A DNA stretch of 32,463 bases from Promethearchaeota archaeon (GTDB lineage Archaea > Asgardarchaeota > Lokiarchaeia > Sigyniarchaeales > SOKP01): NCBI GenBank assembly GCA_004524535.1, contig SDNY01000032.1, positions 1 to 32,463 on the forward strand. The letters run 5' to 3'. Each line of letters starts with the position of its first letter. Position 1 is the stretch's first letter. Below are positions 9,860-31,378 of this stretch, one piece after another. The notes below the pieces were generated by a model, which was given only the letters and a program-made list of their open reading frames with translations, was not told the DNA's origin and did not search any database. The position numbers were made by a program, and so were the translations under genes.

Positions 9860-12241
9860 TTAGCCTTCTCGGCACAATCTTTTCAGTAAGGTAGGATCAA
9901 TTATCTCTTTTGGTTCCCAATTTTTACTTTTCAAATATTCCTGTATTTCAGACTTCAAATTGATTGGAATGTCAGCTTCAACGCGAATGTATTTTTCTAA
10001 ATCGGTTGGAAGGTCAACGCCTTTATATTTTCGTTCTAAGTCAATCCAATGAGATAATTTTATCATACGTCCTTTGGAATTATCAGCTGGCCTCAAACAC
10101 ATTTTAGCAACTAAACAAATTGCCTGTTCGATAGATTCGGCGGTTGTTAATAGGTGTTCAGGACAAGGACTAACTAAATGGTCGCCAGTGCCATCTCGTG
10201 CATTCCATACTTTCCATGTATCCTCATCATCAGTTCTACCTATATACATACGTCTGTATTCAGCTGAATGGGGTCCACATACTGCTGGAATACCCATTCC
10301 ATTACAACTACTTGCTATACTTGCTGCTTTTTGCGACATTGCGCCCCAGGCAACTCCACAAGCTCCAACTCGATTTAAGATATAATCCGCTATTTCTTCA
10401 TAATTACCTCTTAAAGGACGTCGAGCAAATATATTTGCAACTTTAATTGCCGCACCATTTATATGTGGATTTGAGACACATGAGCCTACATTAACTAACC
10501 CTCCTCGGTCGAAATCACCAGGATATCTATCATATAATGTCTTACCTTCTTCGTCTTTTACAAGACCTATATCCATAGCACCACAGCCAGACACTACAAC
10601 AATATAATTCCTATTGCAGAATTCTTCAGCCATTGTATATAATTCTTGGATTTCTTTTCCATAATTGGCACAACCGATAATGGCTACAATTCCAGGAATT
10701 TCTCCTAAGACGATCGGAGCCCCTACATTTCGAATTTCAGTATCCTGAATGGGACCACGCCCTACTCTTAGGTTGAATTTTTCGTTTCTAATCTTTTCAC
10801 GCCCTGCATACATAATTAGAGTGAGAGGTGAAACATCTTTCATGCATTCGGCTTCACATCTACCACAATCTAAGCATGCATCAAATGTGTCTGATAATAT
10901 GGAAAAATCTCCGTCCTTTGCAGCATTTACACCTGCAACTAGTGGAAGATCATTAGGACAATTTCTCTGGCAATTTCCGCAGCCATTACATCTCATTGCC
11001 ATATCTATACATCCTTGCTCATCTGGAACTGCGCTTTTACTCTTTCTAATTGGCCTTACCTTTATTGCCGTTTCTACTGCAACTTGCCCCGCTTTTACGG
11101 GATCTAAAATTAATACACCTTTAGCTTTTCCACTAACTAAATCGTCTACAATTTCATCAACCGGATCATCAGTTCTATCTGGTAATCCATTCATATTTTT
11201 CTCATTTGAAGCGATAAATGGTGCATTTACTAGTTGCGCTTGTTCAAAGCTTCTCAAGTTAACGCATTGCTCATCGACCATCACTACATCTGCTAACCCA
11301 GAACGAATGAAATGCATTTGACGGGCGAGAGAACCAACAACTTTAGCTCCACTGTAATATCTTGTTAAATCCAAAGCAGTACAACAGATTGCTCCTACAT
11401 CAACTTTGCTTTCATATCCCTTCTCCCGCATATAATCAACTAATTCGATTCCAGGTGCTACATTATGGCCAATCATTAAAATTGTAGCCTTATTTTCCGT
11501 ATCTAAAGTACCCATTCCCAATTCAACAATAGGTACATCAGGATCTCCTACAGGAAAACCATATGCAGCAATTTGAACGGCATCAGCTATTTCCATTCCA
11601 ACAGCATCACATAATCCCGCTAAGAAACTTTTTGATTCATAATCTAAATAACTTGATTCTTGACCAGTATGACCCGCCGCAAGAAGATGAGTAATATTGA
11701 ATTGAACCCATTTCATTGCTTCTTCCAAATCTTCTAACGTTTCTGGTTTCATCCCTACTATCAATCGTGTACATGGCATTTCTACAGCAATATTGTTTCC
11801 AAAATTTATTGGGACATTTCCGTATTTTTCTTTGAGCCAGTGAAGCAAGTGATCTCCGTGAGCGCTGTGGCACGAGGCCCCGATACAGCACGCAATCTCT
11901 ACTATCTTTGCACATGCCGTTTCTATATTAATACCACAAGCCCCTGTTCTTCCCTTTGAGAGGTTGCATTTACCGAAGGTACAAAGGCAACACATATCAC
12001 AAATTTACCCAATTATTCCAACAGAATAATTGTTTGGCATGTAATATGGCTTGTACCTCTCCATTAATTTGAAAAACCAATTTCGCAATGTTGGAATATG
12101 GGGCATTGGAGTTGGACCCATTGGCTCCCATTCAGTCTCGTCTCCGAAGCTTACTTTTCCTGTCGTTAATTCGAAGCCCTTAATACTTCCTAGTGGGCCA
12201 GAGTAAGAATCTATTTTTATTTTTGCGCCTTTTTTACTCAT
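9860..12241 (-). CDS. cdhA: Acetyl-CoA decarbonylase/synthase complex subunit alpha (CO dehydrogenase), interrupted by a 30-nt insertion; predicted join(12034..12241,9860..12003), 783 aa
   Basis: Upstream ORF carries WEPMGPTPMP..LRNW..RYKPYYMP. Downstream ORF carries CDMCCLCTFGKC, GHNV, AICCTA, VDEQC, two ferredoxin motifs, GSCVSN and WGAMSQKA. Both ORFs are in the same frame. Confidence 0.92.
12004..12033 (-). other. Putative 30-nt bulge-helix-bulge mRNA intron in cdhA
   Basis: mRNA sense: CAUAUUACA UGCC AA^A CAAUUAUUC UGUUG GAAUAAUUG GGUA AA^U U UGUGAUAUG. Removal gives AUG CCA AUU UGU GAU (M P I C D) and deletes an in-frame UAA. Confidence 0.8.
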
Positions 12242-12402
12242 TTTTACATCAAATTAATTTTTATTTTGTTTTTTTTTAATAATATTTAATCAAATTTTTG
12301 ATTTTATTAAAGTTATTCTATGGAGAATATATCTTTGAGAATTTAAAAGATATTTATTATATTCAAAAGCTTAATAGAAGAAATTTCAAATAATTTATGA
12401 GT

Positions 12403-12414
12403 GTGAAATTTCAC
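12403..12414. promoter_or_regulatory. Perfect 12-bp palindrome upstream of cdhA, possible transcription factor site
   Basis: GTGAAATTTCAC, about 160 nt upstream of the cdhA start. Confidence 0.3.
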
Positions 12415-12511
12415 TCAATGCGAAATTATAGTGAGTCAAATTAAAAACAAAAAGTTAAAAAAAATTGATTAATTTGGAAAAAGAATTTGCGTAAGATTCG
12501 ATTAAGCTAAC

Positions 12512-13117
12512 TTATACGTTATATCTTTCCATATAATTTGAAATTGGGCCTGAATCTATCTCTGAATCAATATCCTTTGCGTCAAACTCATCTATTAACA
12601 AGTCAAATTTAAATATATCTGCTTCATCGTCTTTTAAAAAACACTGAACTTCTTCACCATCAGCATCGATTCCTATTTGTTCTAAAACCCCATTAAAAAT
12701 GCCTTGATAAAGAATACATATATTTTTTGCCATGATATTATCTTTTTCTTCTTGAGAGATAGGATTTTCTACAGAAATAAAGATTTTATCTTTTAAAAAG
12801 GCAGATGTTAAAATACCATATCCTAAATGCTCGAATGCGTCTAAGACGTTGATAATTACTTCCTTTTTATTAGATAAAGTTTCTTCACTCCAATTTGCGT
12901 CACCATATAATTTTTCAATAAAGTATTTTGCCACCGTTTTTCCAACCCATATGACTATATCTTCTGAATTTGCGCCTGCAAACTCTGAAAATTCAATTAA
13001 ATCAATTGGTCTTAACATTAATAACCTTAAATCTAAATCTCTAAAGAAAAGATGTCCTATACTATCATCGATGGTTATTTGCTCTTCTTTCTTAGATTTT
13101 TTAAATCTCTTAGACAT
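12512..13117 (-). CDS. V4R-domain protein
   Basis: RLLMLRP..WVGK..HLGYG..ICILYQGIFNGV..EEVQCFLKDDEADIFKF follows the V4R / TRAPP-Bet3-like fold pattern. Confidence 0.75.
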   Translation of the reverse strand: MSKRFKKSKKEEQITIDDSIGHLFFRDLDLRLLMLRPIDLIEFSEFAGANSEDIVIWVGKTVAKYFIEKLYGDANWSEETLSNKKEVIINVLDAFEHLGYGILTSAFLKDKIFISVENPISQEEKDNIMAKNICILYQGIFNGVLEQIGIDADGEEVQCFLKDDEADIFKFDLLIDEFDAKDIDSEIDSGPISNYMERYNV

Positions 13118-13218
13118 AATTACTCTCTTTTATACTATTTTATTCAATAATTATTATTTATATCCTTAAAAATTTAACTTTTTTTTAAAAAAATAATTTA
13201 TAAAAATTTTATAAGAGA

Positions 13219-14241
13219 TTAAATTAGGTCAAATATCATTTCAGTTACGTTGTTAATATTGAAATTCGTCTTAACTGATGTAAATAGTAACTTCCATTCT
13301 CTATTGTCGATTTTTTCGAATTCAAAATATTCAATAATTTCCTTGGTAAGTCTACCAATTTTTTCTTTATTATTCTGAACGGAATGATCAAATAAATCGA
13401 TTTTATTAGCTAAAATCAATAAGGGAATTCCAAATAATTCGTATCTATTTATAATTTTCCAAAATTCTCTTTTTGACTCTTCGAATCTTATTTGATTTGC
13501 GACATCAATCATAAATATTATAATATTAGATTCTTGAAGTCCGATTAACCATTTATTCCTGAAAGAGAGTTGTCCTGGCATGTCCCATAAAGCTAAAATC
13601 CCTCTAGATTCATCCTGAATGTATTCTATATTAAATTTTCTCGTCGGAACAAAATAATTATCATTATATTTGCCCGTTTTTATCCTTCTTATTAAAGATG
13701 TCTTTCCTACTTCATCTAAACCAAAAAGAAATACCTTATTGAACGAATCATGGTAATGAAATTGAATTTCAGGATGTCTTTCCACATATTCATCTCCATA
13801 TCTACGAATATCAATAAACACTGTAATTAAGAAATTTTCGATTTCAATTTCATCTTTAAATGTACATATTTTTTCGATATTTAACAATTCGTTTAATAGT
13901 TCTTCAAATATGTCTTTATAATCGTAGGGATTATCTTCTTTATCAAGAATTAATCCAATAATGATCTTCCCGTTAATGCAAGTTGTATAAATATTTAAAC
14001 CGTCCATTATTTGAGGGACTGGAGTATCAATTAAATAAAGATAATTAGCGTTGTTGGACTTGCTAATTGATTTACGCGTTCTATATCTATGGATAAGATC
14101 GCCATGATCATGTCCATAAATTATTTTGCTGAGTTGATCTTTATCATCTATCGTAATAATGTCATTTGGATAACTGTAAATATTGAGTTGATCCAAATCT
14201 TGGAAATTTTTACCCTTAAGAAGAAAAATGTTGTATAACAA
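13219..14241 (-). CDS. Arf-family small GTPase with N-terminal extension domain (longin/DENN-like by inference)
   Basis: GLDEVGKTS, PTRK, WDMPGQ, LANKID, TSVK; about 165-aa N-terminal alpha/beta domain (IIIGLILDKEDNPYDY). Confidence 0.85.
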   Translation of the reverse strand: MLYNIFLLKGKNFQDLDQLNIYSYPNDIITIDDKDQLSKIIYGHDHGDLIHRYRTRKSISKSNNANYLYLIDTPVPQIMDGLNIYTTCINGKIIIGLILDKEDNPYDYKDIFEELLNELLNIEKICTFKDEIEIENFLITVFIDIRRYGDEYVERHPEIQFHYHDSFNKVFLFGLDEVGKTSLIRRIKTGKYNDNYFVPTRKFNIEYIQDESRGILALWDMPGQLSFRNKWLIGLQESNIIIFMIDVANQIRFEESKREFWKIINRYELFGIPLLILANKIDLFDHSVQNNKEKIGRLTKEIIEYFEFEKIDNREWKLLFTSVKTNFNINNVTEMIFDLI

Positions 14242-14387
14242 TTATTATTTCAAGATTGTTAATTTCTTTAAGTGGGTAAATAAAAAATGTTTAAAAAATG
14301 TTTTGAATAAGATTTCTTATAATATGTTAAATCTTAATTAAGAAAATCATCGTAGATTTTTTTCAATTTAAAGGTTTCGCTTTATTT

Positions 14388-15839
14388 TTAAGAGGAGGAA
14401 TTTTCATTTTTTTTTGATCCACTATTTTTTGAAGATTCTAAGGATTCTGAAGGTTCTGTTTTATCACCTACCTCTTCTTTTGTATCTTTATCTTTGTCTG
14501 CCTTATCTTCTGGAGGGGGACTTGGTGTTGCAGAGGACGCAGATGACACAGGAGTGTTGCAAATAGGGCATTCAGACCACCCCTTCCTAAGACTATAACC
14601 GCATTTTACGCATTCTGTTAGGTCATTATCTGCTTCCCATTCAGGAATATCTGAAACACCTCCTTTTCTTTTACGAGCTAATTCCTCTAAATCTTCTTCA
14701 GTCCAGACTTCCATACCTTGAGGTATTCCGTCGGTTCTTTTTTCGGCCATCATTCTTAAATTTTCTTCAGTCCAAAATTCCATTCCTGGAGGAGGTGCTC
14801 CACCTCTTTGTTGGGCTGCTTCAGCAAGCTCTTCTACGGTCCAAGCTTGCAGTTCTTGACCTCCTGGGGTTCTTACAGTTCCTGTTGGCTGTGAAGGTAC
14901 TTGAGTTTGTATTCCGCCTGCTTTTTGAGAAGATGGGATCTCACAACACGCTGCTGAAAATTTTATCAATGCTTCAAAACATATTGCAAATCTATCTTGA
15001 TCATTTCCCTCGTCTATAATTAAAATTAATGAAGTATTATCATTAATTAAAGGAATTCCTATTCCACATACTGATGCATTAGAGTCGCGACTAGATTCTA
15101 ATCCACTGCGAATTTTCCCCATTGATGTTAATAAATCCCTTTTACTCATTAAAAAATCGCATATCGGGTCGCCGTGCCTCTGATACCCCTCATGATATTT
15201 TTCTAATTGGGTACTTGTCAATTTAGAATCCAAAGCCTTTATTATCGCACTTACGTAAGAATAGATTTGAGATTTTGGCTCTTTTTGAGAATCATCTAAT
15301 TTATACCCTTCTAAATCAAGATCACCCATAAAAGGCGCGAATAATGGCTCAGCATCCTTCATTTTACCGTAAATGATTGTTTTAGAAAGTAAACACTTGA
15401 TTTCTCCATAATAAGCTATTGAATTATCTAAAAAATTAACATTTTTTTTATCTATTACTAGTCGAGGCACGCTCCGAAATATAACGTCCACCCAAGGCAT
15501 TTCCTTAACAGGTATTATTGCTACACACGTTTTTTCAATTAGTTTACGTAACGCTTTCGAATACTCCTTAAACATCTGTTTTAATTCCTTTTGAACATCC
15601 TTGTATTGTTCTCCCTCTAATTCTTTCTCTGCTTTGACTAAGAAACTTTGAAATTTTTCTTTATTTTTTTTGAGATTTCCGCCTAATTTCTTAATTTCGC
15701 CAATAATATTATCTTTAAAAATGAAAGTAGCGTCTTCAATCAAATTATTTTGAAATTCAGTAAGTTCTGAATCTAAATACTCAGAAACATCAATCTGAAG
15801 ACTATTTATAAATTTTTCAAATAATTTTTGTTCTGCCAA
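14388..15839 (-). CDS. Hypothetical protein with 23-aa WTEE repeats, a zinc ribbon and a disordered tail
   Basis: 483 aa; three W-T-(V/E)-E-x-L repeats, CVKCG..WSECPIC and a Ser/Pro/acidic C-terminus. Confidence 0.75.
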   Translation of the reverse strand: MAEQKLFEKFINSLQIDVSEYLDSELTEFQNNLIEDATFIFKDNIIGEIKKLGGNLKKNKEKFQSFLVKAEKELEGEQYKDVQKELKQMFKEYSKALRKLIEKTCVAIIPVKEMPWVDVIFRSVPRLVIDKKNVNFLDNSIAYYGEIKCLLSKTIIYGKMKDAEPLFAPFMGDLDLEGYKLDDSQKEPKSQIYSYVSAIIKALDSKLTSTQLEKYHEGYQRHGDPICDFLMSKRDLLTSMGKIRSGLESSRDSNASVCGIGIPLINDNTSLILIIDEGNDQDRFAICFEALIKFSAACCEIPSSQKAGGIQTQVPSQPTGTVRTPGGQELQAWTVEELAEAAQQRGGAPPPGMEFWTEENLRMMAEKRTDGIPQGMEVWTEEDLEELARKRKGGVSDIPEWEADNDLTECVKCGYSLRKGWSECPICNTPVSSASSATPSPPPEDKADKDKDTKEEVGDKTEPSESLESSKNSGSKKNENSSS

Positions 15840-16448
15840 TTATATTACCAATTTTAAATAGTTCATTTTTATTTCTAATTGTTCATAATTATATCAACGA
15901 GAACTATATAAAAATTTAATTAAAATAGATGAGCAATAATATTTTAATAAGTAGGGGTTGATTTAATTAAACGAATTTTTGATTCGTTTCGAGCTCCTTT
16001 CTAACAAACTTCTCTAAAAATAGTGTTCAATGGTATTTAAATATTATAAAAAAGATTTTCAACGATATATTAGAGAGTATCCCTAATATTTTTAATAAAT
16101 TATTAAGAGCAATAAAAATAATTAAAAAAAAATTTAAATTTTGAACTTCACTTTAAATTTGAGGAGAAGAGAATCTTTTAAAAAACATTAATCCAATAAT
16201 ATAAAACATTAATAAGAGAAAACATTTATAGGGGAAAAACAAAATTCACATATTAACCCGAAAAAAAAAACATTTAAATATCAATTTATAATAAATATTA
16301 TTATAATAAAATTTATCAAGAAGGCGGTTGTAAGTACCTTTCTGCAACAATTAATGTTTTTTAGTCCTATTTTCATATCAGTTTAAATTAGGCAGGCGTA
16401 AATGGACTATTTTCATTGGTTGTAGCAATAAAAAAATGGTGTTATAGA

Positions 16449-16736: not shown

Positions 16737-16789
16737 AATTCTCAAAATTAAGGATTTGCATAAAAATATATAGTGTATGGCCATCTATT

Positions 16790-19654: not shown

Positions 19655-21370
19655 TTATTTTTTGGCAAACGGTTCAAGATCCAAATCCATAAACACGCCA
19701 TCGTTGGATTCGAGTGTTCCTAAAAAGTTCCATTCACCCTCATCTACATTTTGCCCACTTCCGTATTTTGAAGCCATATTATACAATCTCTTAAAGTTTT
19801 CGTAATGTAGCGCCACTCGATTTTCAGAGTAATCTCTTGCTGACCAAGTCGTTATTAAAAATTGCCAATCACTACTTTCCAAAAGTAATAGCTCTCGCAC
19901 CAATTGTTTTAATATTTTCGATAGATTCTCATCAGCCGAGTCTTTATATTTTGCAATTATCTCTTCACTTTTAGCTTCACACTCATAAATCTTCTCCCAC
20001 GTCCAAGTTGTCCATTCATTCAACCATACCCAATGACTAGAAGCCTGCCCCCACGAGCCTTCAATGATCTGTACAACTTTATTTGGCGGATTTTCTTCGA
20101 GATAAAGCCTGGTGTTAGTTAATTCTATCTCATCATCATCTTCTATCCATCTTAATACTCTCGCTAACCACCAATTTCCTTCAAACCACCAATGCCCAAA
20201 TAATTCACAATCATAAGGAGCAACAATAATTCCGTTGTTTCCAAAATTATTTTTATAATCTCTCAAGATATCCTTAACGAGATTAACATAATGACTTGCA
20301 TTTTCGTCAAGTTTTCCTGGAACATCCTCTGGCCAATACAACATTTTCGAACCCAAATCAATTTTAGGGCTAGTACACTTCCAATATCGTAAACCCCCAG
20401 GATAGTGCTTTTTATGAAAATCTAAATATTCAGCACAGCCAGGATAACCATGTTCACCTGACCATACAACAATCCCTGTCTTTTCATCCCTTGTAAAGAA
20501 TCCAACAGGGGCTGGGGTGGATGGATCTGTAGATACTAAATAGGCTTCATATTGTGATTTTTCAAAAGTAGTGGGAATTTCTTCATATTGCGATTCAAAT
20601 TGTTTCCATAATTCTGCAAGCAAAGGAAATCGCGCTGCATAAACACCTTGGGACTTTCCACCTAATAAAAGGGTAGTATCAACAAAAAAATATTTAAGAC
20701 CATTTTTAGCAACAAAATATTCAACACCAGGTCGTTCATACTCCTCGCCTGAAATAGGGTTTTTCCATCGATACCCAGGACGATACCCACATTCTGGAAG
20801 CCAAACTCCTGTAGGTGCCCTCCCAAAATGATGTTTATAATTATCAACTGCCGTTTTAAATTGAGCATCAATTGAAGTATCTTTGGATAATAACGGGCAA
20901 TATCCATGAGTAGCACCACATGTGATAATATCGATCAAATCCATATCTTGGAGTTTTTTAAAAGCACCAATGATATCTCTATTAAATCTATGAAGAAAAT
21001 CATCTCTTGTTCGTTCGAAGAATTCCTCCCACCATTTCGTAAGTCTAATCCTTCCTTCCTCGTATTTATTTTTCGTAAAATCGTCAAAATCATGGAGAGC
21101 AGCCCCTACTTTCTCGTCTAAGTAGTCGAGGAACCCATTAATGAAAGAGGGGTGTCTAAGCATTTCACATAATACTGGTGTGAGTCCAATAGTTAATTTA
21201 GGATGATAATCATCATCAATCAATTTATATAATTCTTGAAGCAGGGGGATATATGTCTCTGCAGCAGCTTCATTTACCCAACTAGTACCATGTGGCCAAA
21301 TACCGTGTCCCAAGACCCAGGGAAGGTGAGAATGTAATACAAGACAAAATGAGCCCAATATCTCTGGCAT
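19655..21370 (-). CDS. GH57 1,4-alpha-glucan branching enzyme
   Basis: VLHSHLP, ETYIPL, ATHGYCPL, WLPEC (nucleophile), PYDCELFGHWWFEG (acid/base) and ELLLLESSDWQF. Start likely the ATG at 21370 (MPEILG). Confidence 0.92.
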   Translation of the reverse strand: MPEILGSFCLVLHSHLPWVLGHGIWPHGTSWVNEAAAETYIPLLQELYKLIDDDYHPKLTIGLTPVLCEMLRHPSFINGFLDYLDEKVGAALHDFDDFTKNKYEEGRIRLTKWWEEFFERTRDDFLHRFNRDIIGAFKKLQDMDLIDIITCGATHGYCPLLSKDTSIDAQFKTAVDNYKHHFGRAPTGVWLPECGYRPGYRWKNPISGEEYERPGVEYFVAKNGLKYFFVDTTLLLGGKSQGVYAARFPLLAELWKQFESQYEEIPTTFEKSQYEAYLVSTDPSTPAPVGFFTRDEKTGIVVWSGEHGYPGCAEYLDFHKKHYPGGLRYWKCTSPKIDLGSKMLYWPEDVPGKLDENASHYVNLVKDILRDYKNNFGNNGIIVAPYDCELFGHWWFEGNWWLARVLRWIEDDDEIELTNTRLYLEENPPNKVVQIIEGSWGQASSHWVWLNEWTTWTWEKIYECEAKSEEIIAKYKDSADENLSKILKQLVRELLLLESSDWQFLITTWSARDYSENRVALHYENFKRLYNMASKYGSGQNVDEGEWNFLGTLESNDGVFMDLDLEPFAKK

Positions 21371-21606
21371 AAAAACAAAAATACGTAATTTCTTAATAAT
21401 TTTGCCACATGCCAAAAATCTCTAGAAAAAACACAATTAATCGATTTAACTAATTCAAAATTGGATTTTTCATTAAACATTTGATTTCTTAAATACAGGG
21501 AAATTTTCTTTTTTTTTTAAAATAGAAAAATTTAAGAACTTAAACTATATGAAATTAGTAATACTTTCCAATTGAAATTGAAAAGAAAATATAAATATTT
21601 GATTAA

Positions 21607-22989
21607 ATGGTTGAAAATCTTAAAGAACTTACAAAGGACGGACGTATCATCGGAAGAGCTAATTATGTATTCACGCCAGAGATAGCAAGCAGCATCGGTT
21701 CAATTCATGGTAGTTTATTTAAGCAAAACGAATCTGTAGTCATGGGGAGGGATTATCATAACGATTCTCGAATGCTTAAGCGAGGATATACGTCAGGTTG
21801 CATGAGTACTGGAGTAAATCTGTTAAATTTATCAGATTGTGCATATCCTTTATTACAATTCACAATTAGAAGATTTGGAGCGAGTGGCGGTGCTTATTTT
21901 TCGGCAGGACATTTATATAGTGAAGATGTTGGAGTAAGATTTGTTGATGCTGGGGGAATTGAATTATCTTCTTTAGAAATTCAAAAAATAATTAATGCTT
22001 ATAATAATTACCCCGAACAAATACGTAGAGTAGATCCAAATGAAATAGGTCAAATAACCTCAATCCCTCAGACTAAAGAAATTTATATTAAATCTTTACA
22101 GCAATTTGTTAACAAGAAAAGAATACGAAATGAGGATCTTAAGATTGTAGTTGATTGTTCTTATGGTCCTAGCGGGAAGATTACGCCATTGTTATTAAAT
22201 GAGATTGGGGTAGAGGTTATTGCATTAAATACACATTATCGTCAGAGATCGAGTAATCCAGTTCCTAACATTCATACTATTAGAAACTGTGCAGATATAG
22301 TGAAAGCATCCAACAGTCATCTTGGTGTATGTTTTGATGTCGATGGTTCCAGAATTCTAGTATTAGACGAAAGTGGATTAGAAATAAATTTTGAAGATTT
22401 ACTAATGCTATTTATATCCTACGACGAAAGAATAACAAAATCTAAATCAAATACCATTATAACTACTCCTACAATTTCTTCAACCGCAAAAGAATTTATC
22501 AAAGAATCTGGATATCCATTAAAGGAAGTTCAAAATGATCCTGGAGAGATTTCAAGGCAAATTAGAGAAGAACGGGCGTGTTTTGCCGCAGCGGATACAT
22601 TAAAATTTTATTTTCCAGAATATGCTCCATTTAGCGATGGAAACTTCATTCTCTTAAAGCTGCTTGAAATTATGACGATTCAGGAGGATTTATTAAGTTC
22701 ATTAACTAGAGGGTTCCCTAAAGGGATAAAGATTAATAAATCAATTACAGTCTCTCAAGATATAATTGAAAATTTTCACAATCAATTAAGAAAGGTTGTT
22801 GAGGAAAATGGTTTTAAATATCATGACATCATAAATGAGTTAAAGATTATTGATAAGGAGCAAAAAATTTTTACTCAGGTAAAGATTTCTTTATACAGAA
22901 ATGCGATACTTCTTTCTGCAGAATCTGATGACGTTAACGCAGCAAAAACTATGATAACCGAGCTTGAGGAAATTATTACTAATTTATAA
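21607..22989 (+). CDS. Phosphomannomutase/phosphoglucomutase-superfamily protein with degenerate active site
   Basis: GRANYVFTPE, VVMGRD..SRMLKR and VVDCSYG are present. FSAGH replaces TASHN and FDVDGSR replaces DxDxDR. Confidence 0.8.
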   Translation: MVENLKELTKDGRIIGRANYVFTPEIASSIGSIHGSLFKQNESVVMGRDYHNDSRMLKRGYTSGCMSTGVNLLNLSDCAYPLLQFTIRRFGASGGAYFSAGHLYSEDVGVRFVDAGGIELSSLEIQKIINAYNNYPEQIRRVDPNEIGQITSIPQTKEIYIKSLQQFVNKKRIRNEDLKIVVDCSYGPSGKITPLLLNEIGVEVIALNTHYRQRSSNPVPNIHTIRNCADIVKASNSHLGVCFDVDGSRILVLDESGLEINFEDLLMLFISYDERITKSKSNTIITTPTISSTAKEFIKESGYPLKEVQNDPGEISRQIREERACFAAADTLKFYFPEYAPFSDGNFILLKLLEIMTIQEDLLSSLTRGFPKGIKINKSITVSQDIIENFHNQLRKVVEENGFKYHDIINELKIIDKEQKIFTQVKISLYRNAILLSAESDDVNAAKTMITELEEIITNL

Positions 22990-23119: not shown

Positions 23120-23821
23120 ATGGCATTAGATGCAGCTGGAATGATCTTATTAGTATCATTTTTTATAATATGGGGAGTCTTCCTGGCATGGGATTTCTTT
23201 CGTAGAATTTCATGAATCTCTCATGAAGTACGCAAAGGAGAAAAATATGGCTTCCTAGCTTACATATTGGCTGTAATTCCAGTTAATATGTTATGGGGCT
23301 ACGGTTTTAATATTTTAGGGGTTTATATTGTCCTTTTTGTATTATGGATAATTTGTCTTTTTCGTGATTTAATATTAGTATATGGCAAAACAAAAGAATA
23401 TGATGATATTTTGCTATTTTTAGGAATTGCAATTCTAGTTCAAGTAATTTTAACAGGAATATTGCCATATATGAATGAGCAAATGCAAAGTAATTGTGTG
23501 GCAGCCTGGGTCTTTTGGTTTCCTGATGTTTATAATCCAAATACAAATGCTATAAAAAGTTGGGTTAATGCTAACTATCTATTAGGATTTAGAGTAGCAG
23601 CAACAGGCATGGTAATATTAGCTATTTTACCAATGATCTTAGATTTATACTACACGGAAGAACATGTTAATCTTTTAGCAATAATTTTTATCGATTGTAT
23701 TTTTGTGGCCCCTTTTCTCTGGCTGGCATACGTTTGGATGGGAGGCATCGGTTGGCCATTGACTTTCTTGTTTGCGGTGCTTTTATTTATAGTTTTATTA
23801 CTATTAACAAGGGAGAGATAA
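23120..23821 (+). CDS. Multi-pass membrane protein interrupted by a 30-nt insertion; predicted join(23120..23205,23236..23821), 223 aa
   Basis: ATG at 23120 gives MALDAAGMILLVSFFIIWGVFLAWDFFRR (one TM helix), in frame with the hydrophobic ORF 23267..23821. The two are separated only by a TGA at 23213..23215 inside a hairpin. Confidence 0.75.
23206..23235 (+). other. Putative 30-nt relaxed BHB/BHL mRNA intron
   Basis: UCGU AG^A AUUUCAUGA AUCUC UCAUGAAGU ACGC AA^A GGAG: 9-bp stem, 5-nt loop, central helix with 3 of 4 pairs. Removal gives F F R R G E K Y G. Confidence 0.62.
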
Positions 23822-23942: not shown

Positions 23943-24938
23943 ATGGCAAAAAAAAAAGGTCAATTAGATACGGATGATAAGAGCAAGGAGTCAAATCTTA
24001 ATAAAACATACTCTTTAAAAGATTTACCGGGAGTAGGAGAAGCGACTTTAAAAAAATTAAAAGAGGCTGGAATTACATCTATTAGATCCCTTGCGATGGT
24101 TCCCAAACAATCATTAATGGATGATGCATCTATTGGCGAAAAGACAACTGAGAAATTAATTAAACTTGCCCAAGATATTGAAAAAATGGGATTTAAATCT
24201 GCGAGTGAAATTTGGGAAAAAAGAAAAGTATTGAAAAAATTGACTACGGGAAGTCAAAATTTGGACGAATTATTGGCTGGGGGTATAGAAACAGGGGCGG
24301 TAACAGAGGTTTTTGGGGAATATAGAACAGGTAAAACTCAACTTGCACATCAGATTTGTGTTAATGTACAACTGAAAGAAGAGGAAGGAGGGCTTGAAGG
24401 TAGCGCTCTATATATCGATAGTGAAGGAACTTTTAGACCTGAAAGAATAATTCAAATGGCAGAAGCAAGGGATTTGGATTATAATAAAGTATTAAAAAAT
24501 ATTACAATTGGGCGAGCTTACAATAGTGACCACCAGATTCTCTTAATAAAGGATGCTCCAAAAGTCATAGAAGAAAAAAATATTAAAGTAATTATAGTTG
24601 ATTCGCTAATTAGTCATTTTCGCGCCGAATATATTGGAAGGGGTACACTCGCCTCTAGACAGCAAATATTAAATAGCCATATTCATGATTTATTAAGATT
24701 AACCGAAACTTTTGAATTAGCCGCCGTTTTTACAAATCAAGTCTCATCTAGACCAGATGTATTTTATGGGAATCCTATAATCCATACTGGAGGTCATATA
24801 GTCGCCCATGGTGCTACAATTAGAATTTATTTGAGAAAAGGAAAAGGAGAGCAGAGAGTTGCTAAAGTTGTTGATGCTCCTCATTTGCCGGAAGAAGATG
24901 CTGTTTTTTCTATAACAGAAGATGGGATAACAGATTAA
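23943..24938 (+). CDS. radA: DNA repair and recombination protein RadA
   Basis: N-terminal HhH (LPGVGEAT), FKSA polymerisation motif, Walker [22 protein letters not shown], Walker B IIVDS and GGHIVAH. No intein. Confidence 0.97.
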
Positions 24939-24949
24939 AAATTAAGTTA

Positions 24950-25501
24950 TTATGTGTCCACTGCGATATAATCCCACTCTTCATTCTCTTTAATTACCCA
25001 TTCTAATGCATAATGCCACTCATAAATAATAGAAGGATGATAGCCAGCTGGGAGTTCCTTATCATTAATTTGAGCATCTCTTAATTCCCAGTTGATTTTA
25101 TAAACACGTTCAAACATATCTCGAATCTCCTCTGGATCTCTTAACTGAACATTATCTGAATCAATTTTTGAATAAAAATCATCAGCTTTTAATAACTCTT
25201 TGATCTTATCTAAATTAGTTTCATCTTTAGGAAGCTCCGAGAAATTAAAATAATTCAAAGCCCATAACAAAATATACACTGCTTCTGCTCGCCAACCTAA
25301 TTGCAGAGCAATAAATCGTGAGTCCTCTTCCGGACTGAGAAGAAAGTTTTTTTCATTTTCAGAAACTTCAGACCAAAGGCCCTTATCTTTGAAAATTTTT
25401 ATAACTTCTTCTTTTTTTCTTCCAGTTGCAGATTGGAATACTCCAATTAAAGTCTTTACTCTTCGGGCAACTTCTTGGGGGTTTCTTATATTGAATCTCA
25501 A
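24950..25501 (-). CDS. DUF4272-like protein
   Basis: VSENEKNFL, GWRAEAVYILLWAL, LRDPEEI and EWHYALEWV..EWD match the DUF4272 pattern. Confidence 0.75.
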   Translation of the reverse strand: MRFNIRNPQEVARRVKTLIGVFQSATGRKKEEVIKIFKDKGLWSEVSENEKNFLLSPEEDSRFIALQLGWRAEAVYILLWALNYFNFSELPKDETNLDKIKELLKADDFYSKIDSDNVQLRDPEEIRDMFERVYKINWELRDAQINDKELPAGYHPSIIYEWHYALEWVIKENEEWDYIAVDT

Positions 25502-25636
25502 CTCATTTTTTTTAGGAATTTTCTTAATAAATTCAAAAAATTTTTAGTATTTTTACTTAAGGATTATATTATATTAATTAATCTTTTAGATTTTTCTTAA
25601 TTAGTTCTTATTAAGATAGAGAGAGAGTAGATAATC

Positions 25637-26356
25637 TTGGTAAAATTGACAATTCTTATTGATGATATTGATGATTCAGAAGTCGGGTATAAAAAATCAT
25701 TTGGTTTTGCCGCGCTGATTGAAAAAGATAACAAGAAGATATTGTTTGATACGGGAACATATTCAGAGCCATTATTAGCAAATCTGAGAACACACGGCAT
25801 TTCTCCATCTTCTTTGGATGCAATCATTTTATCACATAATCATAATGATCATACTGATGGACTTCCAGGTATTTTGAAAGAGAATAATGATATCCCGACA
25901 TATGTGAATAAAGATTGGGATGTTCCAGTAAGTTTTCAAGGTAAACGAATTCCTAAGAGGAATTTAGTCGTAAATAATGAAGCTCGTGAACGTAAAGATA
26001 TAGCATCCGGAATTTATTTGACTAATTCTCATTATTCTTCTGATTATGGACGGATATATGAGCATGCCTGCTATATTGATACTGGAAACTCTTATATATT
26101 AATATGTGGGTGTTGTCATCCGGGATTAACAATATTTTTACAAGACCGAACTCAACTTGGTATTCCCTTAGATTTCGATTTACATCTAATTGGGGGGATG
26201 CATGGGTTTAGGTTTTCTGACAGTGAAGCTGAAGAATTGGATTCAATAGTGAAATCAGTCATCTTATGTCATTGTACATCTTATGCAAGCGATTATAGAA
26301 GACAATTTGGAAAAAGATGTACTCTAGGGATAGTCGGTCATACTTTAAAATTTTAA
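25637..26356 (+). CDS. MBL-fold metallo-hydrolase
   Basis: ILFDTG, LSHNHNDHTDG (HxHxDH), GCCHPG, IGGMH and CHCT. Confidence 0.9.
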   Translation: MVKLTILIDDIDDSEVGYKKSFGFAALIEKDNKKILFDTGTYSEPLLANLRTHGISPSSLDAIILSHNHNDHTDGLPGILKENNDIPTYVNKDWDVPVSFQGKRIPKRNLVVNNEARERKDIASGIYLTNSHYSSDYGRIYEHACYIDTGNSYILICGCCHPGLTIFLQDRTQLGIPLDFDLHLIGGMHGFRFSDSEAEELDSIVKSVILCHCTSYASDYRRQFGKRCTLGIVGHTLKF

Positions 26357-26454
26357 TAGTTTTCCATGACACACTTTAGAAAAATATGGATATTATACTT
26401 TGACATCCACACATATTTTAATTCCTTCTATGATAGATACAGTAATTATGCAAG

Positions 26455-26916
26455 TTATTTTGCTATTTGTAAATTTATTTCAATAGCAGGAGCTTCTCTA
26501 TTTTTTGAACAACTCTGCTTAAAGAAATTGATACAATTTTTAATCTCCAATATTCGTTCCGCTTTAATCTTCTTCGGATCAAATTTTAGCGTTATTGAAT
26601 TAATTCTCCAAATTCCCATAGAATCCTTTTCTACATGAAATTCTGCTTCCTTATATACATCTGATACTTTAAAATCGTCGTTTTTAACACATATAGATAA
26701 ACCATAGTCAAGACAGTTTAAAATAGAGGATGTTAATAATCTTGAATAAGGATCTTCGGAAATCAAATCCTCCTCTGATTTACCAGCTTTTTCCACAATA
26801 CAATCTTTTAATTTATTTTCCGATAAATCACAACTAAACCTAATTTCCTCTTTACCTAACCTTGAGTCAATTAATTCTTTTAATTCTTCATACATCGCAT
26901 TTAATCTATCGATCAT
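26455..26916 (-). CDS. OsmC-like protein (divergent)
   Basis: PYSRLLTSSILNCL..WRINSITL..NCINFFKQSC retains the two-cysteine spacing typical of the OsmC/Ohr fold. Confidence 0.55.
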   Translation of the reverse strand: MIDRLNAMYEELKELIDSRLGKEEIRFSCDLSENKLKDCIVEKAGKSEEDLISEDPYSRLLTSSILNCLDYGLSICVKNDDFKVSDVYKEAEFHVEKDSMGIWRINSITLKFDPKKIKAERILEIKNCINFFKQSCSKNREAPAIEINLQIAK

Positions 26917-27024
26917 TCTAATGTTTTTCTCGTTTTATATATCTAATTAACAGATCTATTAGCTTTTTTTTAAAGTTTAATGAAATATTTTATAAATTTC
27001 ATATTCACCTCAATTCTCATTCTA

Positions 27025-27615
27025 TCAGCTCGATTCAATTTTTTTCAAATGAAAGTGGCGTGATAGATGAAAATATAAACCTAAAAAATATAATAGAGTA
27101 ATAAGTATATATTCAAATGCGAGAAGAAGAATCAATATCATCATTAGTATAAATAAAAGTATTTCAATTGTAACGCTTATTTTACTTTTATAATATTTAA
27201 AATCAAAAAAACTCGCTGGACTTTTATATTGATCTAAATATTGGGGCAATTTTTCCTCCTCTTCTTTAGATATAAAAAATCTTGGACCGAATGTTTTTTT
27301 TGGAAAATATAAAACATTTGTACCCCAATCAAATAAATCAACAAAAATATGTATAAAATATGAAAAGCCACTGATTATTAATGCAGGCCAATAAAATATT
27401 ATTCCAAATACAAATATAATGATGCTTGGTATTATAGAATGAGTAATCAAATTTCTATGATTGTGATCTTTTGCATATTTGGAAAAAAAAACGTCAAAAT
27501 CACTTATAACAGAAGCTAAAACAATCATAATAAATTCAAACAAGGAAAAGCAGAAATAATAATGAAAGACAGACGCAATTATAACCCCAATTGCGAAATG
27601 ACTATTAATATGGAT
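27025..27615 (-). CDS. Membrane-bound metal-dependent hydrolase (YdjM-like); probable ATC start
   Basis: The frame extends 24 codons beyond the ORF-track start to (M)HINSHFAIGVIIAS, restoring the N-terminal His. It also has SDFD, HRNLITHS and HIFVD. AGGTGA lies 7 nt upstream of the ATC. Confidence 0.8.
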   Translation of the reverse strand: MHINSHFAIGVIIASVFHYYFCFSLFEFIMIVLASVISDFDVFFSKYAKDHNHRNLITHSIIPSIIIFVFGIIFYWPALIISGFSYFIHIFVDLFDWGTNVLYFPKKTFGPRFFISKEEEEKLPQYLDQYKSPASFFDFKYYKSKISVTIEILLFILMMILILLLAFEYILITLLYFLGLYFHLSRHFHLKKIESS

Positions 27616-27631
27616 AAGATATTCACCTTAA

Positions 27632-28609
27632 TTATAAAATATAATTTTTACTTTTTACTCTCTCTAAAACCTTTTCTTTTATTTCAAATCCTGCTGGACC
27701 AGTCTTTTCGACATTAAAAGAAGCAGCAGAGGATGCTAAATAAGCTGCTTTTTCAATAGATTGCCATGTTTTATCAGACTTTATAAATTCATATAAAAAT
27801 ATGGCAAAATAAACATCGCCCGCGCCAGTTTCGTCAACGACACCCCGAGATTTGAAAGCCGGTATCTTTAATATCTTTTTTCCTTTTTTAACAATTAACG
27901 ACCCAGCTTCTCCCAAGGTCATTATAAATATTCCTTTTAATTCCATGAAGTTAAAATATTCCATAGCTTCATATATATCATCTTTTTGAGACAATATCTT
28001 CATTTCTTCTTCGGAACCTTTTAAAATCAGTTTATCTCCGATTAAATTTACTATTTTTTCAATATTTGAGAGAATTTTTTCATCCCTTATGATAGAAACA
28101 TGACCATCTTCAATATTTCTAATAAACCCTTGAAGTTCTACGGCGATATAAGCATTTGGGAAATAATTTAAAATATCAGTAATGTACTCGTAAGAAATTT
28201 CATTACATAATGGTGCTAAAACAATTACATCTGGAGGGTTATTAAGATAGTCCTCAGGAATATCCTTAATTTCAAGATTAGGACTCTTTGATTTAAGGGT
28301 TAAAGTTCTTGAATGATTAAAATAATTTAAGATAAAATTAGTATTATTTTCTTCAGACCATTTTAATCCTTTTAAATCAATATCTTTATTTTTAATTAAT
28401 TTTAACAGACTTTTATCGAAATTTAAGCTACCTAAATTGGAAATAATTTTGATTTTAATATCATTCGTATAGAAAGAGAGAGATAAAGAGCCAAAAGAAA
28501 CGCTTCCCCCCAGAGAGGGTTTGTGTTTTTTTTGAAATCTTATAATAGTATCAATTGCGATGTGTCCAATAAAAAATATTGAGGGACGATTTCTTATATT
28601 ATTCCTCAT
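27632..28609 (-). CDS. PfkB-family carbohydrate kinase
   Basis: IGHIAID, LGGS, TLGEAGS and VDETGAGDVY. Confidence 0.92.
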   Translation of the reverse strand: MRNNIRNRPSIFFIGHIAIDTIIRFQKKHKPSLGGSVSFGSLSLSFYTNDIKIKIISNLGSLNFDKSLLKLIKNKDIDLKGLKWSEENNTNFILNYFNHSRTLTLKSKSPNLEIKDIPEDYLNNPPDVIVLAPLCNEISYEYITDILNYFPNAYIAVELQGFIRNIEDGHVSIIRDEKILSNIEKIVNLIGDKLILKGSEEEMKILSQKDDIYEAMEYFNFMELKGIFIMTLGEAGSLIVKKGKKILKIPAFKSRGVVDETGAGDVYFAIFLYEFIKSDKTWQSIEKAAYLASSAASFNVEKTGPAGFEIKEKVLERVKSKNYIL

Positions 28610-29461
28610 TTATTTTTTCTGTAATTCTTCAATTTTTTTATTCTTTTCCTTTAATGCTAGTTTTAACTTATTAATTTTACCTTGTAAGTCATCGATTAAT
28701 CCGGACATAGGACCGCCGCTAGGTGTTGACGCTTCGTCTGCCTTAGAAATTTTCAACTCATTTATCATTTTATCCTTTTCTTTCAATTGCTCCTGAAGTT
28801 CTTCTATTTTACTTTCGGATGCCTGTCCTTCGGTAGCTGCTGCAGGTTTTTCTTGGAGTTCTTCCTTCAATTTTGAGATTTCGTTATTAAGCATCTCGTT
28901 TTCTTTCTTTAATTCCTTAATTTCCTCAGACATTCCTGAAGTATCACCTGATTGGGTCTGTTTAAGTGTTTCATTCTCTTTTTTTAATTTTGCTACAGCT
29001 TTCTTATATTTATTTATTTTGCCTTGTAATTCATCGACTAATCCGGACATAGGACCGCCGCTAGGTGGTGATGCTTCTTGTGTTACAGGTTCTTCAACAG
29101 GTGTTACAGAATCAGCCGAAGGTTTTTCTTTCATTTCTACTAATTCTTTATTTAACGAAACATTTTCTTCGGTTAAGTTGGTAATTTTAGCTTGAAGATC
29201 ATTTTTATCATTTTCTAAATCTGAAATTTTATTTGTTAAATCTTTCTTTAAATCATCCTTCTCTCCCATAGTTTGTTCAAGGGTTTTTTCTAAACCTTGA
29301 AGCACTTCATCTCTTTTTTCTATTTTCTCTTTCAATTCCTCATTTTGTTTTTCTAGTGCTTCAATTTTTTCTAGTGTATCGCCGATTATTGAAGGTGATT
29401 TACCATCTGATTTCATCTTTTTCAACTTACTTATAAAATCTTCCTTTGACATTTTTCTCAA
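28610..29461 (-). CDS. Coiled-coil protein with a duplicated C-terminal module
   Basis: Heptad-rich; PSGGPMSGL(V/I)D(E/D)LQGKINK occurs twice. Confidence 0.75.
   Translation of the reverse strand: MRKMSKEDFISKLKKMKSDGKSPSIIGDTLEKIEALEKQNEELKEKIEKRDEVLQGLEKTLEQTMGEKDDLKKDLTNKISDLENDKNDLQAKITNLTEENVSLNKELVEMKEKPSADSVTPVEEPVTQEASPPSGGPMSGLVDELQGKINKYKKAVAKLKKENETLKQTQSGDTSGMSEEIKELKKENEMLNNEISKLKEELQEKPAAATEGQASESKIEELQEQLKEKDKMINELKISKADEASTPSGGPMSGLIDDLQGKINKLKLALKEKNKKIEELQKK
28697..29067. repeat. Intragenic direct repeat with an identical 29-nt core
   Basis: TAATCCGGACATAGGACCGCCGCTAGGTG at 28697..28725 and 29039..29067. Confidence 0.9.
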
Positions 29462-29559
29462 TTAATTTATTTTTTAGAATTCATTTACTAATACTTATAA
29501 TTCCAGAACATTTCTCAATTAATATATTTTTTCAGAATCCATTTACTTATAATTTCGGA

Positions 29560-29625
29560 ATCTGATTTCATCCATTTCAACTTACTTATGAAATCATCCT
29601 TTGATATTTTACTTAATTTATTTTT
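29560..29625 (-). repeat. Degenerate duplicate of the 5' end of the coiled-coil gene
   Basis: TCTGATTTCATC..TTCAACTTACTTAT.AAATC.TCCTTTGA.ATTTT matches about 29405..29474 and encodes ISKDDFISKLKWMKSD versus MSKEDFISKLKKMKSD. Confidence 0.8.
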
Positions 29626-29648
29626 CTATATGGGTGAAATTTGTTTGT

Positions 29649-30557
29649 TTATTTTATAATAAGACCAGAAAAGTATCCCACCGAATATTCACAGGGTCCA
29701 GTGCCCCCTCCTTTATCGTAAGACATATAATACTTTAAGGCTTTATTTTTACATTGATTATTAGTTAATTTATTACAAATTAGCATTAACGATGTAATCG
29801 TTTGTGGTCCACATACTGAGGTATTTTGAGCGGTTTTAAAAGTCTTTTTCGGGTCACCCTCTACAAATGCATCTATAACCGCTTGATCTTTTTTACGCAT
29901 ATCATCTAAATCATTTTTTGGATTTGAAATGTTTCTAGGCTGTTTATGTGTCATATCAGAAGATGCTACAATAACGCAATCTTTTTCACAAGATTTAATC
30001 GCATTTGAGATATCTGTTGATAATTTTTCCATCGTTTCATAATTTTTCGAAGAAATTTTTATTGGAACTATTTTAATATCTTTATCTTGAGCACAATATT
30101 TAATAAATGGTAATTGAACCTCTATGTTGTGCTCTCTCCCAAAAGGAAAACCTATAAATGCCGAATTGTCTGAAATAATTATGTCACTATTTTTAACAAT
30201 TTCCTTTGATAATTCTGAATCTATACTTAAATTTCCTAATGGCGTTTCCCAGATTCCTTCTTCCATCAAACCGACTTTTCCATACCCTACATGATCGGTA
30301 CCTAACACTATAACTGTATCAGGAATTTTTTCTTTAAATAAATTTAAATAAGTAAATGCCGAAGCACATCCTGAATAAATATATCCTGCGTGAGGAGATA
30401 CTCCACCAATATTAGTTCTTTGTTCTTGGTTTAACGTACTAAATTCCTTTCCAGGACCAAAATCTTTATTTAAGAAAGATTCGTTTAGGATTCTAAGTAA
30501 ATCTGGTTTATATCGTGGATAAAAACTTCCTGCGACTGCAGCTTTTCTTACAATCAA
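29649..30557 (-). CDS. MEMO1-family protein (AmmeMemoRadiSam system protein B)
   Basis: RKAAVAGSFYP, SPHAGYIYSG, WETPLG, EHNIEVQLPF, VASSDMTH, SVCG and SVGY. Confidence 0.95.
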   Translation of the reverse strand: MIVRKAAVAGSFYPRYKPDLLRILNESFLNKDFGPGKEFSTLNQEQRTNIGGVSPHAGYIYSGCASAFTYLNLFKEKIPDTVIVLGTDHVGYGKVGLMEEGIWETPLGNLSIDSELSKEIVKNSDIIISDNSAFIGFPFGREHNIEVQLPFIKYCAQDKDIKIVPIKISSKNYETMEKLSTDISNAIKSCEKDCVIVASSDMTHKQPRNISNPKNDLDDMRKKDQAVIDAFVEGDPKKTFKTAQNTSVCGPQTITSLMLICNKLTNNQCKNKALKYYMSYDKGGGTGPCEYSVGYFSGLIIK

Positions 30558-30772
30558 TTTTTTTCTATTATTTTATGTATATAATATTAAAATTATTCAC
30601 TTAGTAATTTAAATAATTTCATATTAAATAAAGAGATTGCAGATTCATTATTTTAAATCAGACATTGATATTTAGACCAAAAAGGCTATTATATTGAAAA
30701 ATTCACATATTTGAATAAATAAAAGTTCTTAAGTTATTCAAAGGGTTAATAAATTATCCAAGATAATTCTAC

Positions 30773-31378
30773 TTGATGGAAAAAAAGGAAAACATTCAGA
30801 TTTCGCTTGATGATATAAACGAAGATGATATACCAGCCAAGATTCCAGCTAAATTTATTAATTCGAGAATTGTTATTTTTAATCCTCTTTATGCCTCTTA
30901 CTTATATGTGAAGGAAAAGTTTTTTGGCTCTCCCCTTGGAATAAGTAAGCCCCGTTTAGAATATTTCCATAAACCTTCAGAGTTGTCTGTTATTGAGGCT
31001 TATTACCTATTAGAAAAAGGTAAGATTACTATTTTTGATGTTAAAAGAGAGAAGGATCTTAATGCTAAGGAATTTTTTGAAATTGCCAAACAAATACACC
31101 ATAAATTTGAGGAAAAATACGTAATTTATAAAGATTTAAGAGAAAAAGGATATATTCCTCGACCAGGGTTGAAATTTGGAGCAGATTTTGTAGTATATAA
31201 GAAAGGCCCCGGATTAGAACACTCTCCCTTCATTGTACACGTATTACCTCATGATTCTAAAATTAGTGCAATTGATATGGTCAGAGCTGGCAGATTAGCT
31301 ACATCAGTTAGAAAAAAATTTGTTATCGCAAATCCCCAAACTATAAACTACTATTTCTTTACGTGGTTTAAGCCGTAA
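30773..31378 (+). CDS. endA: tRNA splicing (intron) endonuclease, catalytic subunit
   Basis: ELSVIEAYYL, VIYKDLREKGY, GLKFGADFVVY (Tyr), GPGLEHS (His) and RLATSVRKK (Lys): catalytic triad intact. Confidence 0.95.
   Translation: MMEKKENIQISLDDINEDDIPAKIPAKFINSRIVIFNPLYASYLYVKEKFFGSPLGISKPRLEYFHKPSELSVIEAYYLLEKGKITIFDVKREKDLNAKEFFEIAKQIHHKFEEKYVIYKDLREKGYIPRPGLKFGADFVVYKKGPGLEHSPFIVHVLPHDSKISAIDMVRAGRLATSVRKKFVIANPQTINYYFFTWFKP

Follow-up and report, generated by a model that had tools for sequence, protein, structure and literature searches.

Candidate bulge-helix-bulge mini-introns in protein-coding genes of an archaeon with Asgard-like gene content

Two interrupted genes and the enzymes encoded with them

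Positions 1 to 32,463 of contig SDNY01000032.1, part of a 3.66 Mb metagenome-assembled genome (Promethearchaeota archaeon, GCA_004524535.1; 99% complete, 30% GC; G000 in the following), constitute the stretch analysed here and are referred to as the window. Two of its genes are interrupted by 30-nt inserts. One is cdhA, coding for the alpha subunit of carbon monoxide dehydrogenase/acetyl-CoA synthase (CODH/ACS), the other is a membrane-protein gene on the opposite strand; a catalytic subunit of the splicing endonuclease EndA is encoded in the same window (Table 1). Both inserts resemble the bulge-helix-bulge (BHB) introns of archaeal tRNAs.

Table 1. Positions of the interrupted genes, the candidate introns and the endonuclease gene in the window
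Feature	Position	Strand	Remarks
cdhA, CODH/ACS alpha subunit	9860..12241	-	exon 1 12034-12241, exon 2 9860-12003; PDB matches, Pfam Prismane
Candidate 30-nt BHB-type intron in cdhA	12004..12033	-	single match; 1 nt + hairpin + 4 nt + AA; in-frame TAA
Exon half UGCC of the central 4-bp helix, cdhA	12036..12039	-	partner GGUA near intron 3' end; from folds
Membrane-protein gene, no Pfam family	23120..23821	+	exon 1 23120-23205, exon 2 23236-23821
Candidate 30-nt relaxed BHB-type intron in membrane-protein gene	23206..23235	+	single match in window; in-frame TGA
Exon half UCGU of the central helix, membrane-protein gene	23200..23203	+	3/4 positions pair with intron ACGC
EndA catalytic (alpha-type) subunit	30773..31378	+	PF01974 E 7.6e-31, PF02778

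The open reading frame (ORF) of cdhA, read from 12241, is closed by a TAA that arises at the insert's 3' end, beyond which the frame continues to 9860. With an X at the stop, the read-through protein matches the solved CdhA structure 8riu_A over its full length (E 2.5e-263), and the alignment contains one 10-residue insertion only, located exactly at the insert between conserved residues, after approximately codon 69 of about 784. The gene is present in a single copy in the genome. A 55-nt stretch around the insert folds with -15.8 kcal/mol (z -4.57; none of 200 shuffled sequences was equal or better), and the fold proceeds from an outer exon-exon helix of 8 bp to the 4-bp UGCC/GGUA helix, to a 3-nt bulge (AAA) made up of the two exon bases after UGCC and the first intron base, and finally to an intron hairpin of 9-10 bp. 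The 5' region of cdhA was matched in 26 of 40 related genomes and 20 loci were aligned. Inserts are present in four of them; the other 16 are uninterrupted, including those of the closest relatives G002 (86% identity) and G008 (81%). Genome G007 shares its site with G000, the insert there being 32 nt long and forming another hairpin, and G010 and G019 carry 31-nt inserts at a second site 9 nt downstream, the one in G019 with a clean 3-4-3 arrangement of bulge, helix and bulge and a perfect 9-bp stem.

The membrane-protein ORF starting at 23120 meets a TGA inside its insert, after about codon 29 of about 224, and continues in the same frame to 23821. Its fold over 60 nt (-14.0 kcal/mol, z -2.29, 4 of 200 shuffles equal or better) includes a weak outer helix of 6 bp with G.U pairs. 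Homologues are found in 38 of the 40 relatives, and a stop inside the gene occurs only in G000 and in G008, where the insert is identical. These two are the only carriers among 13 aligned loci; the remaining 11 lack exactly those 30 nt and have open frames. The sequence around the insert would allow three different 30-nt excisions in cdhA and two in the membrane-protein gene, and in each case one of them cuts after base 2 of each bulge. Fold statistics by themselves prove little here and it is the comparative data that carry the case. The original prediction, made from the letters of the window, had described two different 30-mers on opposite strands in different genes, each in frame, with a stop and near the 5' end of its gene. 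All of this was recovered, each 30-mer occurring once in the window, and close relatives lack the inserts at exactly the predicted boundaries.

The EndA subunit aligns end-to-end with the alpha subunit of Aeropyrum pernix (3p1z_B, E 7.6e-37) and retains both the catalytic histidine column and a K-P-R triplet at the positions of K44-P45-R46. Residues K44 and R46 lie in the crenarchaeal specific loop (CSL), which confers a broad substrate range according to PMC3241643. With the Pfam matches and the conserved triplet, the predicted intact EndA with a CSL-like loop is thus confirmed. The genome encodes two EndA paralogues, on contigs C100 (the window) and C84 (region 30615-30863). This number would fit the (alpha-beta)2 enzyme that is reported for Asgard and TACK archaea, the Asgard form having this loop, in PMC5829648. 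An RtcB ligase, whose presence had been proposed as a check, is encoded on contig C101 (561 bits, above the Pfam cut-off, no stops within the match).

A class of inserts with a common layout

An unbiased indel screen, in which 368 kb of G008 and 400 kb of G005 were aligned to the genome (336,516 nt at 87.6% and 329,162 nt at 76.4% identity, respectively), recovered such inserts at a rate of about 1 per 100 kb. Beyond the two window cases it yielded inserts in cdhD (30 nt; C8:3057-3086), in the gene of RNA polymerase subunit A' (rpoA'; 31 nt; C17:449-479) and, confined to G008, in the orthologue of the window ORF 19655-21415 (30 nt; minus strand, near 21306). The G008 insert has the same layout, with an 8-bp stem, a 7-nt loop and an in-frame TAA, and is absent in G000; the presence of inserts thus differs gene by gene between congeners. 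All inserts found in the screen have the layout of 1 nt, hairpin, 4 nt and 2 nt. Several other indels and structured stretches were not counted: a 15-nt in-frame hairpin of G008 within a Pro-rich repeat, an in-frame 22-nt indel of G005, the non-coding hairpin at C72:1723 and the structured, apparently non-coding stretch at C90:714.

We then searched the genome with a tight descriptor, which combined this layout with an AA end and with a long ORF that is broken by the insert and restored by its removal. A 3-nt bulge gave 14 hits, as compared to 5, 4, 5, 6, 3, 5 and 4 hits for seven decoy bulge sizes. A census that included folding gave 33 candidates of 30-31 nt versus 14-21 for decoys and, when an AA end was demanded, 14 versus 1-7; the decoys overestimate the background because they re-use the same hairpins. 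Six census hits were rejected, four located upstream of the real start (C98:14225, C173:1755, C34, C138:29441) and two where the real coding sequence lies in another frame (C132:1448, C100:20251). In total, the genome holds about 18 such introns of 30-34 nt, a lower bound for this type, as the filters required a stop or frameshift together with a near-perfect hairpin. The expectation of many cases genome-wide is therefore borne out by a clear excess over decoy geometries under tight criteria. The accompanying idea that further cases are hidden as 10-residue insertions gained no support from this search: stop-free in-frame candidates numbered 21, compared to 24-32 for decoys.

Seven of the introns are backed by an insert-free orthologue or by an exact 10-residue gap in an alignment to a solved structure (CdhA, ArgG and the gamma subunit of 2-oxoacid:ferredoxin oxidoreductase show such gaps). 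They are found in cdhA, the membrane-protein gene, cdhD, two sites of rpoA', argG and the gene of the oxidoreductase gamma subunit; G008 carries the argG insert at the same site. Nine more are backed by a Pfam domain that runs across the insert or is split by it, or by a structure alignment that restarts after it, and affect an AMP-binding ligase (C74), AOR, CdhC, acetyl-CoA synthetase, Elp3 (31 nt), RNase HII, an ABC ATPase (34 nt), a DeoC-type aldolase (32 nt) and a metallo-beta-lactamase-fold protein. The final two (C165, C101) are backed by structure and reading frame. Pfam domains extend across or are split by the insert in cdhD, cdhC, two AMP-binding ligases, AOR, Rpb1 domain 1, Elp3, ABC and DeoC, and the junctions often lie inside conserved motifs, such as SGGL|DTS in ArgG and GHFGH|IEL in Rpb1 domain 1. 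Where an insert measures 31, 32 or 34 nt, it puts the downstream part out of frame, and that part is still conserved coding sequence; read-through or a tolerated 10-residue insertion therefore cannot explain those cases. The first intron base is A in 15 of the 18 inserts, and 15 of 18 end in AA. None has a second copy in the genome (best other matches ≤24 nt, E ≥ 0.013) and the flanks share at most 2 nt, which is not the pattern of a miniature inverted-repeat transposable element (MITE), with its many near-identical copies, terminal repeats and target-site duplications, in line with what had been proposed.

Three features of this set are mentioned as observations. The CODH/ACS genes cdhC (C32:3640-3669), cdhD and cdhA are each interrupted in G000, which may be due to chance or may hint at coordinated control. 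The pattern A-N-N-U-C is frequent among the 5-nt loops (AUCUC twice, AGUUC twice, AUUUC twice, AGAUC), far above the expectation from base composition, and comparable loops are seen in relatives. About 48 codons past the cdhC intron (C32 ~3790-3815) there is a +2 frame shift at a 7-bp hairpin with the loop AUUCC, which may represent a second, 26-nt intron with a slightly different cut geometry or a frameshift error.

The rpoA' gene allowed us to follow the inserts over many genomes. In G000 it has two inserts within 130 nt, and its N-terminal part is single copy; only the first ~181 codons are assembled (C17:3-606), as the gene runs off the contig end, and the rest was not found by tblastn anywhere in the genome. 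With the intron-less N-terminus of G008 as a query, 149 of 160 genomes of the class were matched, mostly by stop-free stretches of 540 nt and in a minority by stretches of 570 nt with stops, or split near residue 80. Seventeen stretches were fetched in addition to those of G000, G008 and G002, and 18 loci were inspected. An insert follows directly after the GHFGH codons in 14 of the 18, all from one family-level group (f1), with a length of 30 nt in nine and of 31, 40, 50, 65 or 85 nt in the others. A second insert lies 6 nt downstream in two of the nine 30-nt loci (65 nt in total), and G077 and G078 have an insert elsewhere in the stretch. In G101, G067, G020, G095 and G114 (L195, L196, L198, L194 and L197), inserts of 50-85 nt occupy a site that lies about 5 nt further downstream than the 30-nt one; those of G101 and G067 consist of two tandem inserts with 6 exon bases between them.

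The nine 30-nt rpoA' introns, which form a gap-free alignment (the 31-, 40-, 50- and 85-nt versions were excluded), were compared with the BHB structure. Paired bases occupy 92.3% of the cells, as opposed to 71.2 ± 2.9 in shuffled alignments, and the covariation score is 0.637 versus 0.248, with none of 500 shuffles as high in either case; these shuffle figures are not probabilities, because the nine sequences share ancestry and also served to derive the structure. The argument is carried by double changes and by slid controls: both sides have changed in 10 of 13 pairs, whereas pairing falls to 32-46% when the partners are slid by 1-3 columns. The pairing includes the exon, since the third base of a glycine codon pairs with its intron partner in all nine sequences as AU, GU, GC or UG. 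Conserved structure without conserved sequence, initially proposed from two inserts, is thus upheld by compensatory changes.

An independent reference for the geometry is provided by the tRNA-Pro(UGG) gene of this genome, whose intron lies at the canonical position 37/38 with boundaries set by tRNA numbering. Its layout is that of the inserts: a first bulge of two exon bases and one intron base, a hairpin, four exon-pairing nucleotides and 2 nt. With both cuts placed after bulge base 2, the sequence and frame of the intron-less orthologue are obtained. A disagreement between insert boundaries and bulge cleavage positions had been named beforehand as a result that would speak against splicing; the boundaries agree with the predicted cuts and with the tRNA-Pro intron. 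Only this tRNA was used, because the intron calls of ARAGORN in this genome are mostly unreliable. The program reported only 12 tRNA genes in the nearly complete genome, several of them with doubtful intron calls; such a low count fits tRNA genes with so many interruptions that standard tools overlook them. The window itself contains no tRNA or Rfam family.

Proposed splicing and competing explanations

We consider it very probable that the inserts are a family of stereotyped BHB mini-introns in protein genes of this archaeon and its relatives, which are spliced from mRNA. The gene would be transcribed together with its insert. In the pre-mRNA, a 4-bp helix would form between exon bases just upstream and bases close to the insert's 3' terminus, the remainder of the insert would fold into a hairpin of 8-10 bp, and a 3-nt bulge would be left on each strand. 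EndA, presumably with two different subunits of which one is encoded in the window, would cut after base 2 of each bulge, and RtcB would ligate the exons to restore the reading frame. The inserts with their exact boundaries, the conserved and covarying structure, the number of cases and the presence of the enzymes are established, while cleavage and ligation in the cell are the steps that we infer. Without these two steps, the message would yield a truncated product only, because the inserts carry stops or shift the frame. Most likely, the introns spread in the same expansion that interrupts the tRNA genes of this genome, and they are probably tolerated rather than useful.

Several results weigh against this assignment. 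The layout that had been claimed for both window inserts (1 nt, 9-bp stem, 5-nt loop, 4 nt, AA) is correct in general but not in detail. The 3' bulge of cdhA has 4 nt, resulting in a 3-4-4 instead of a strict 3-4-3 motif, and its minimum-energy fold has a 10-bp stem with a 3-nt loop. In the membrane-protein gene, the central helix consists of 3 bp and one U.C mismatch, the 3' bulge has 2-3 nt and the outer helix is the weak one noted above. Both window cases are therefore relaxed and not strict BHB motifs; the strict form is present in the cdhD intron of G000 and in the cdhA intron of G019. According to PMC3241643, relaxed forms are known substrates of loop-bearing EndA. Loose descriptor scans of the genome gave no excess of the 3-nt bulge over decoy bulge sizes (approximately 6,700-7,300 hits for 4-bp inner helices, 2,200-2,400 for 4-bp outer helices and 21,500-22,500 for 7-bp hairpins), and the excess becomes visible under tight criteria only. 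The loose descriptors were dropped for their excess noise at this GC content, and a loose ORF-fusion test was uninformative as well. Furthermore, 11 of the about 18 cases, namely those backed by Pfam or restarting structure alignments and by structure and frame, come without an aligned intron-less orthologue.

The RNA libraries belong to the same side of the balance. Nine RNA runs were listed, none of which contained half of the sampled words, and the assembled contigs of four metatranscriptome runs were placed on the window. The spliced junction is present in none of the contigs from these four runs, in which minor or short forms would be invisible as they are dropped during assembly. The cdhA site is spanned by a single contig at about 97% identity, and the insert is retained in it (X4 record 28, 11972-12086; 115 nt, 3 differences); its depth of 4.5 is similar to that of the adjacent exon contigs. 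It is probably a transcript and not DNA carry-over, because the 11 kb next to cdhA have no RNA-contig cover. Cover was nearly absent from the window apart from cdhA. An unspliced cdhA transcript hence seems to exist at an assemblable level, which would be compatible with removal that is slow or regulated. A G008-like relative without the insert in its DNA is the source of most contigs around the site, and its sequence accounts for the loose contig ends at 12001. A 111-nt 'skip' joint in run X1 was discounted, as one of its sides is 21 nt long and the record matches poorly.

A retained insert is what translational bypassing would predict, in which the mRNA keeps its inserts and translating ribosomes skip them, and short hairpins with an internal stop in a coding sequence would suit this explanation too. 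Bypassing requires matched take-off and landing codons, however, and these are absent: the codon before the insert and the last insert codon differ in cdhA (CCA, UAA) as well as in the membrane-protein gene (AGA, AAA), with a boundary identity of 2 nt and 1 nt, respectively. It would also leave the 4-bp exon-intron helix, the covariation of the exon wobble base and the identity with the tRNA intron layout without a reason, and we regard it as improbable. Hardly different, and if anything slightly less probable, is the assumption that MITE-like elements or replication slips have inserted hairpins at the DNA level and thereby produced pseudogenes or truncated products. The stops inside the inserts, their coming and going between congeneric genomes and the lack of spliced RNA in the contigs would be in agreement with such events. 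Yet the genes are intact and conserved on both sides of the insert, including those for RNA polymerase A', ArgG, RNase HII and three CODH/ACS subunits, and no decay downstream (frameshifts, stops, relaxed constraint) was seen in the cases checked. The single-copy state of cdhA and of the rpoA' N-terminus and the lack of a second copy of any insert likewise speak against it, as do the compensatory changes that maintain an RNA structure over many genomes, since a DNA insertion has no need for such pairing.

An assembly or sequencing artefact might be suspected in a metagenome-assembled genome of 198 contigs with an estimated contamination of 4.4%, but is hardly credible. Independent assemblies have identical or homologous inserts at corresponding sites (G008 for the membrane-protein gene and argG; G007, G010 and G019 for cdhA; 13 more genomes for rpoA'), and the RNA-library contig that holds the cdhA insert stems from another study. 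A different and more far-reaching view, which we deem unlikely but less so than the preceding ones, accepts the introns and makes them active. The 30-nt introns would currently be spreading in mRNA and tRNA, entering places where the exon half of the motif is on offer through reverse splicing or in a homing-like manner. Their excision would proceed slowly or under regulation, with the result that unspliced message with its stops builds up, and splicing would gate the output of whole pathways, e.g. through the three CODH/ACS genes, amounting to an Asgard-type, protein-only mRNA splicing guided by RNA structure as a means of gene control. That cdhA and rpoA' were hit repeatedly within conserved motifs, at sites separated by few bases, would follow from this view, because insertion would need an exon half-motif.

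Relation to known introns and side observations

If the inserts are spliced mini-introns as proposed, their closest counterpart would be the BHB intron in the cbf5 pre-mRNA of Crenarchaeota (Watanabe 2002; Yoshinari 2006; Yokobori 2009, PMC2738675), whose splicing was reportedly shown experimentally. Both comprise a tRNA-type intron in a coding sequence, a hetero-oligomeric endonuclease of broad specificity and gain or loss among related species. In contrast to the one gene in hyperthermophilic Crenarchaeota, about 18 introns are present here in one genome of another lineage, where they follow one stereotyped 30-nt plan, can occupy several sites of one gene and fall into hot spots separated by 5-9 nt; and where splicing of cbf5 is an experimental result, we infer it. 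Central functions are affected (RNA polymerase, arginine synthesis, RNase HII, CODH/ACS), and relatives carry more such introns. In the main texts of the open literature, crenarchaeal cbf5 is the only archaeal protein gene for which we found a BHB intron reported, with none from Asgard archaea, and a 2025 structural paper on splicing endonucleases cites the cbf5 work as its sole mRNA case. With archaeal tRNA introns, the inserts share the motif, the cut positions and, as judged from tRNA-Pro of this genome, a similar length, and presumably also the enzymes; the difference is that they sit in an mRNA. A preprint and a Nat Commun paper on tRNA introns of Asgard archaea deal with tRNA and do not mention mRNA introns in the passages covered.

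The proposed splicing would have several consequences. Gene callers would annotate such genes as split or truncated, which would distort metabolic reconstructions. Spliceosome-free mRNA splicing would be routine in a lineage whose gene content is like that of Asgard archaea, which are the prokaryotes nearest to eukaryotes, and one could test directly how non-spliceosomal mRNA splicing arose and how introns spread. The exon-intron covariation would also provide a natural data set on the substrates accepted by a broad-specificity EndA.

Two further systems can be compared. In the unconventional HAC1/XBP1 mRNA splicing of eukaryotes, the endonuclease IRE1 cuts in stem-loops, an RtcB-type ligase joins the exons in animals, and the frame changes. 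A small non-spliceosomal mRNA intron, endonuclease cuts, RtcB-type joining and an effect on the frame are therefore common to both. The difference is that IRE1 acts there and not EndA/TSEN, on one regulated substrate instead of many that are apparently constitutive; no homology of the motifs is claimed. Hairpin inserts of T4 gene 60 and the 'byp' inserts of a yeast mitochondrion, by comparison, are translational bypass elements. They too are short, stop-containing hairpins in a coding sequence, but the inserts described here have no matched take-off and landing codons and show a covarying exon-intron pairing. The XBP1 intron is named in the abstract of bioRxiv 10.1101/2025.06.17.660180.

Two observations concern other parts of the sequence. 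A leucine-rich repeat (LRR) protein and two small GTPases of the Arf/Gtr1-RagA type, eukaryote-like families that are typical of Asgard archaea, are encoded at 6026-9534 and 13219-14241 of the window. As far as gene content can tell, these Arf, Gtr1/RagA and LRR families and the type of EndA would fit an Asgard archaeon. Around positions 700-760 of contig C90 there is a 29-nt indel relative to both G008 and G005, in a stretch with stops in all frames that folds with -22 kcal/mol over 89 nt and may be an unannotated structured RNA.

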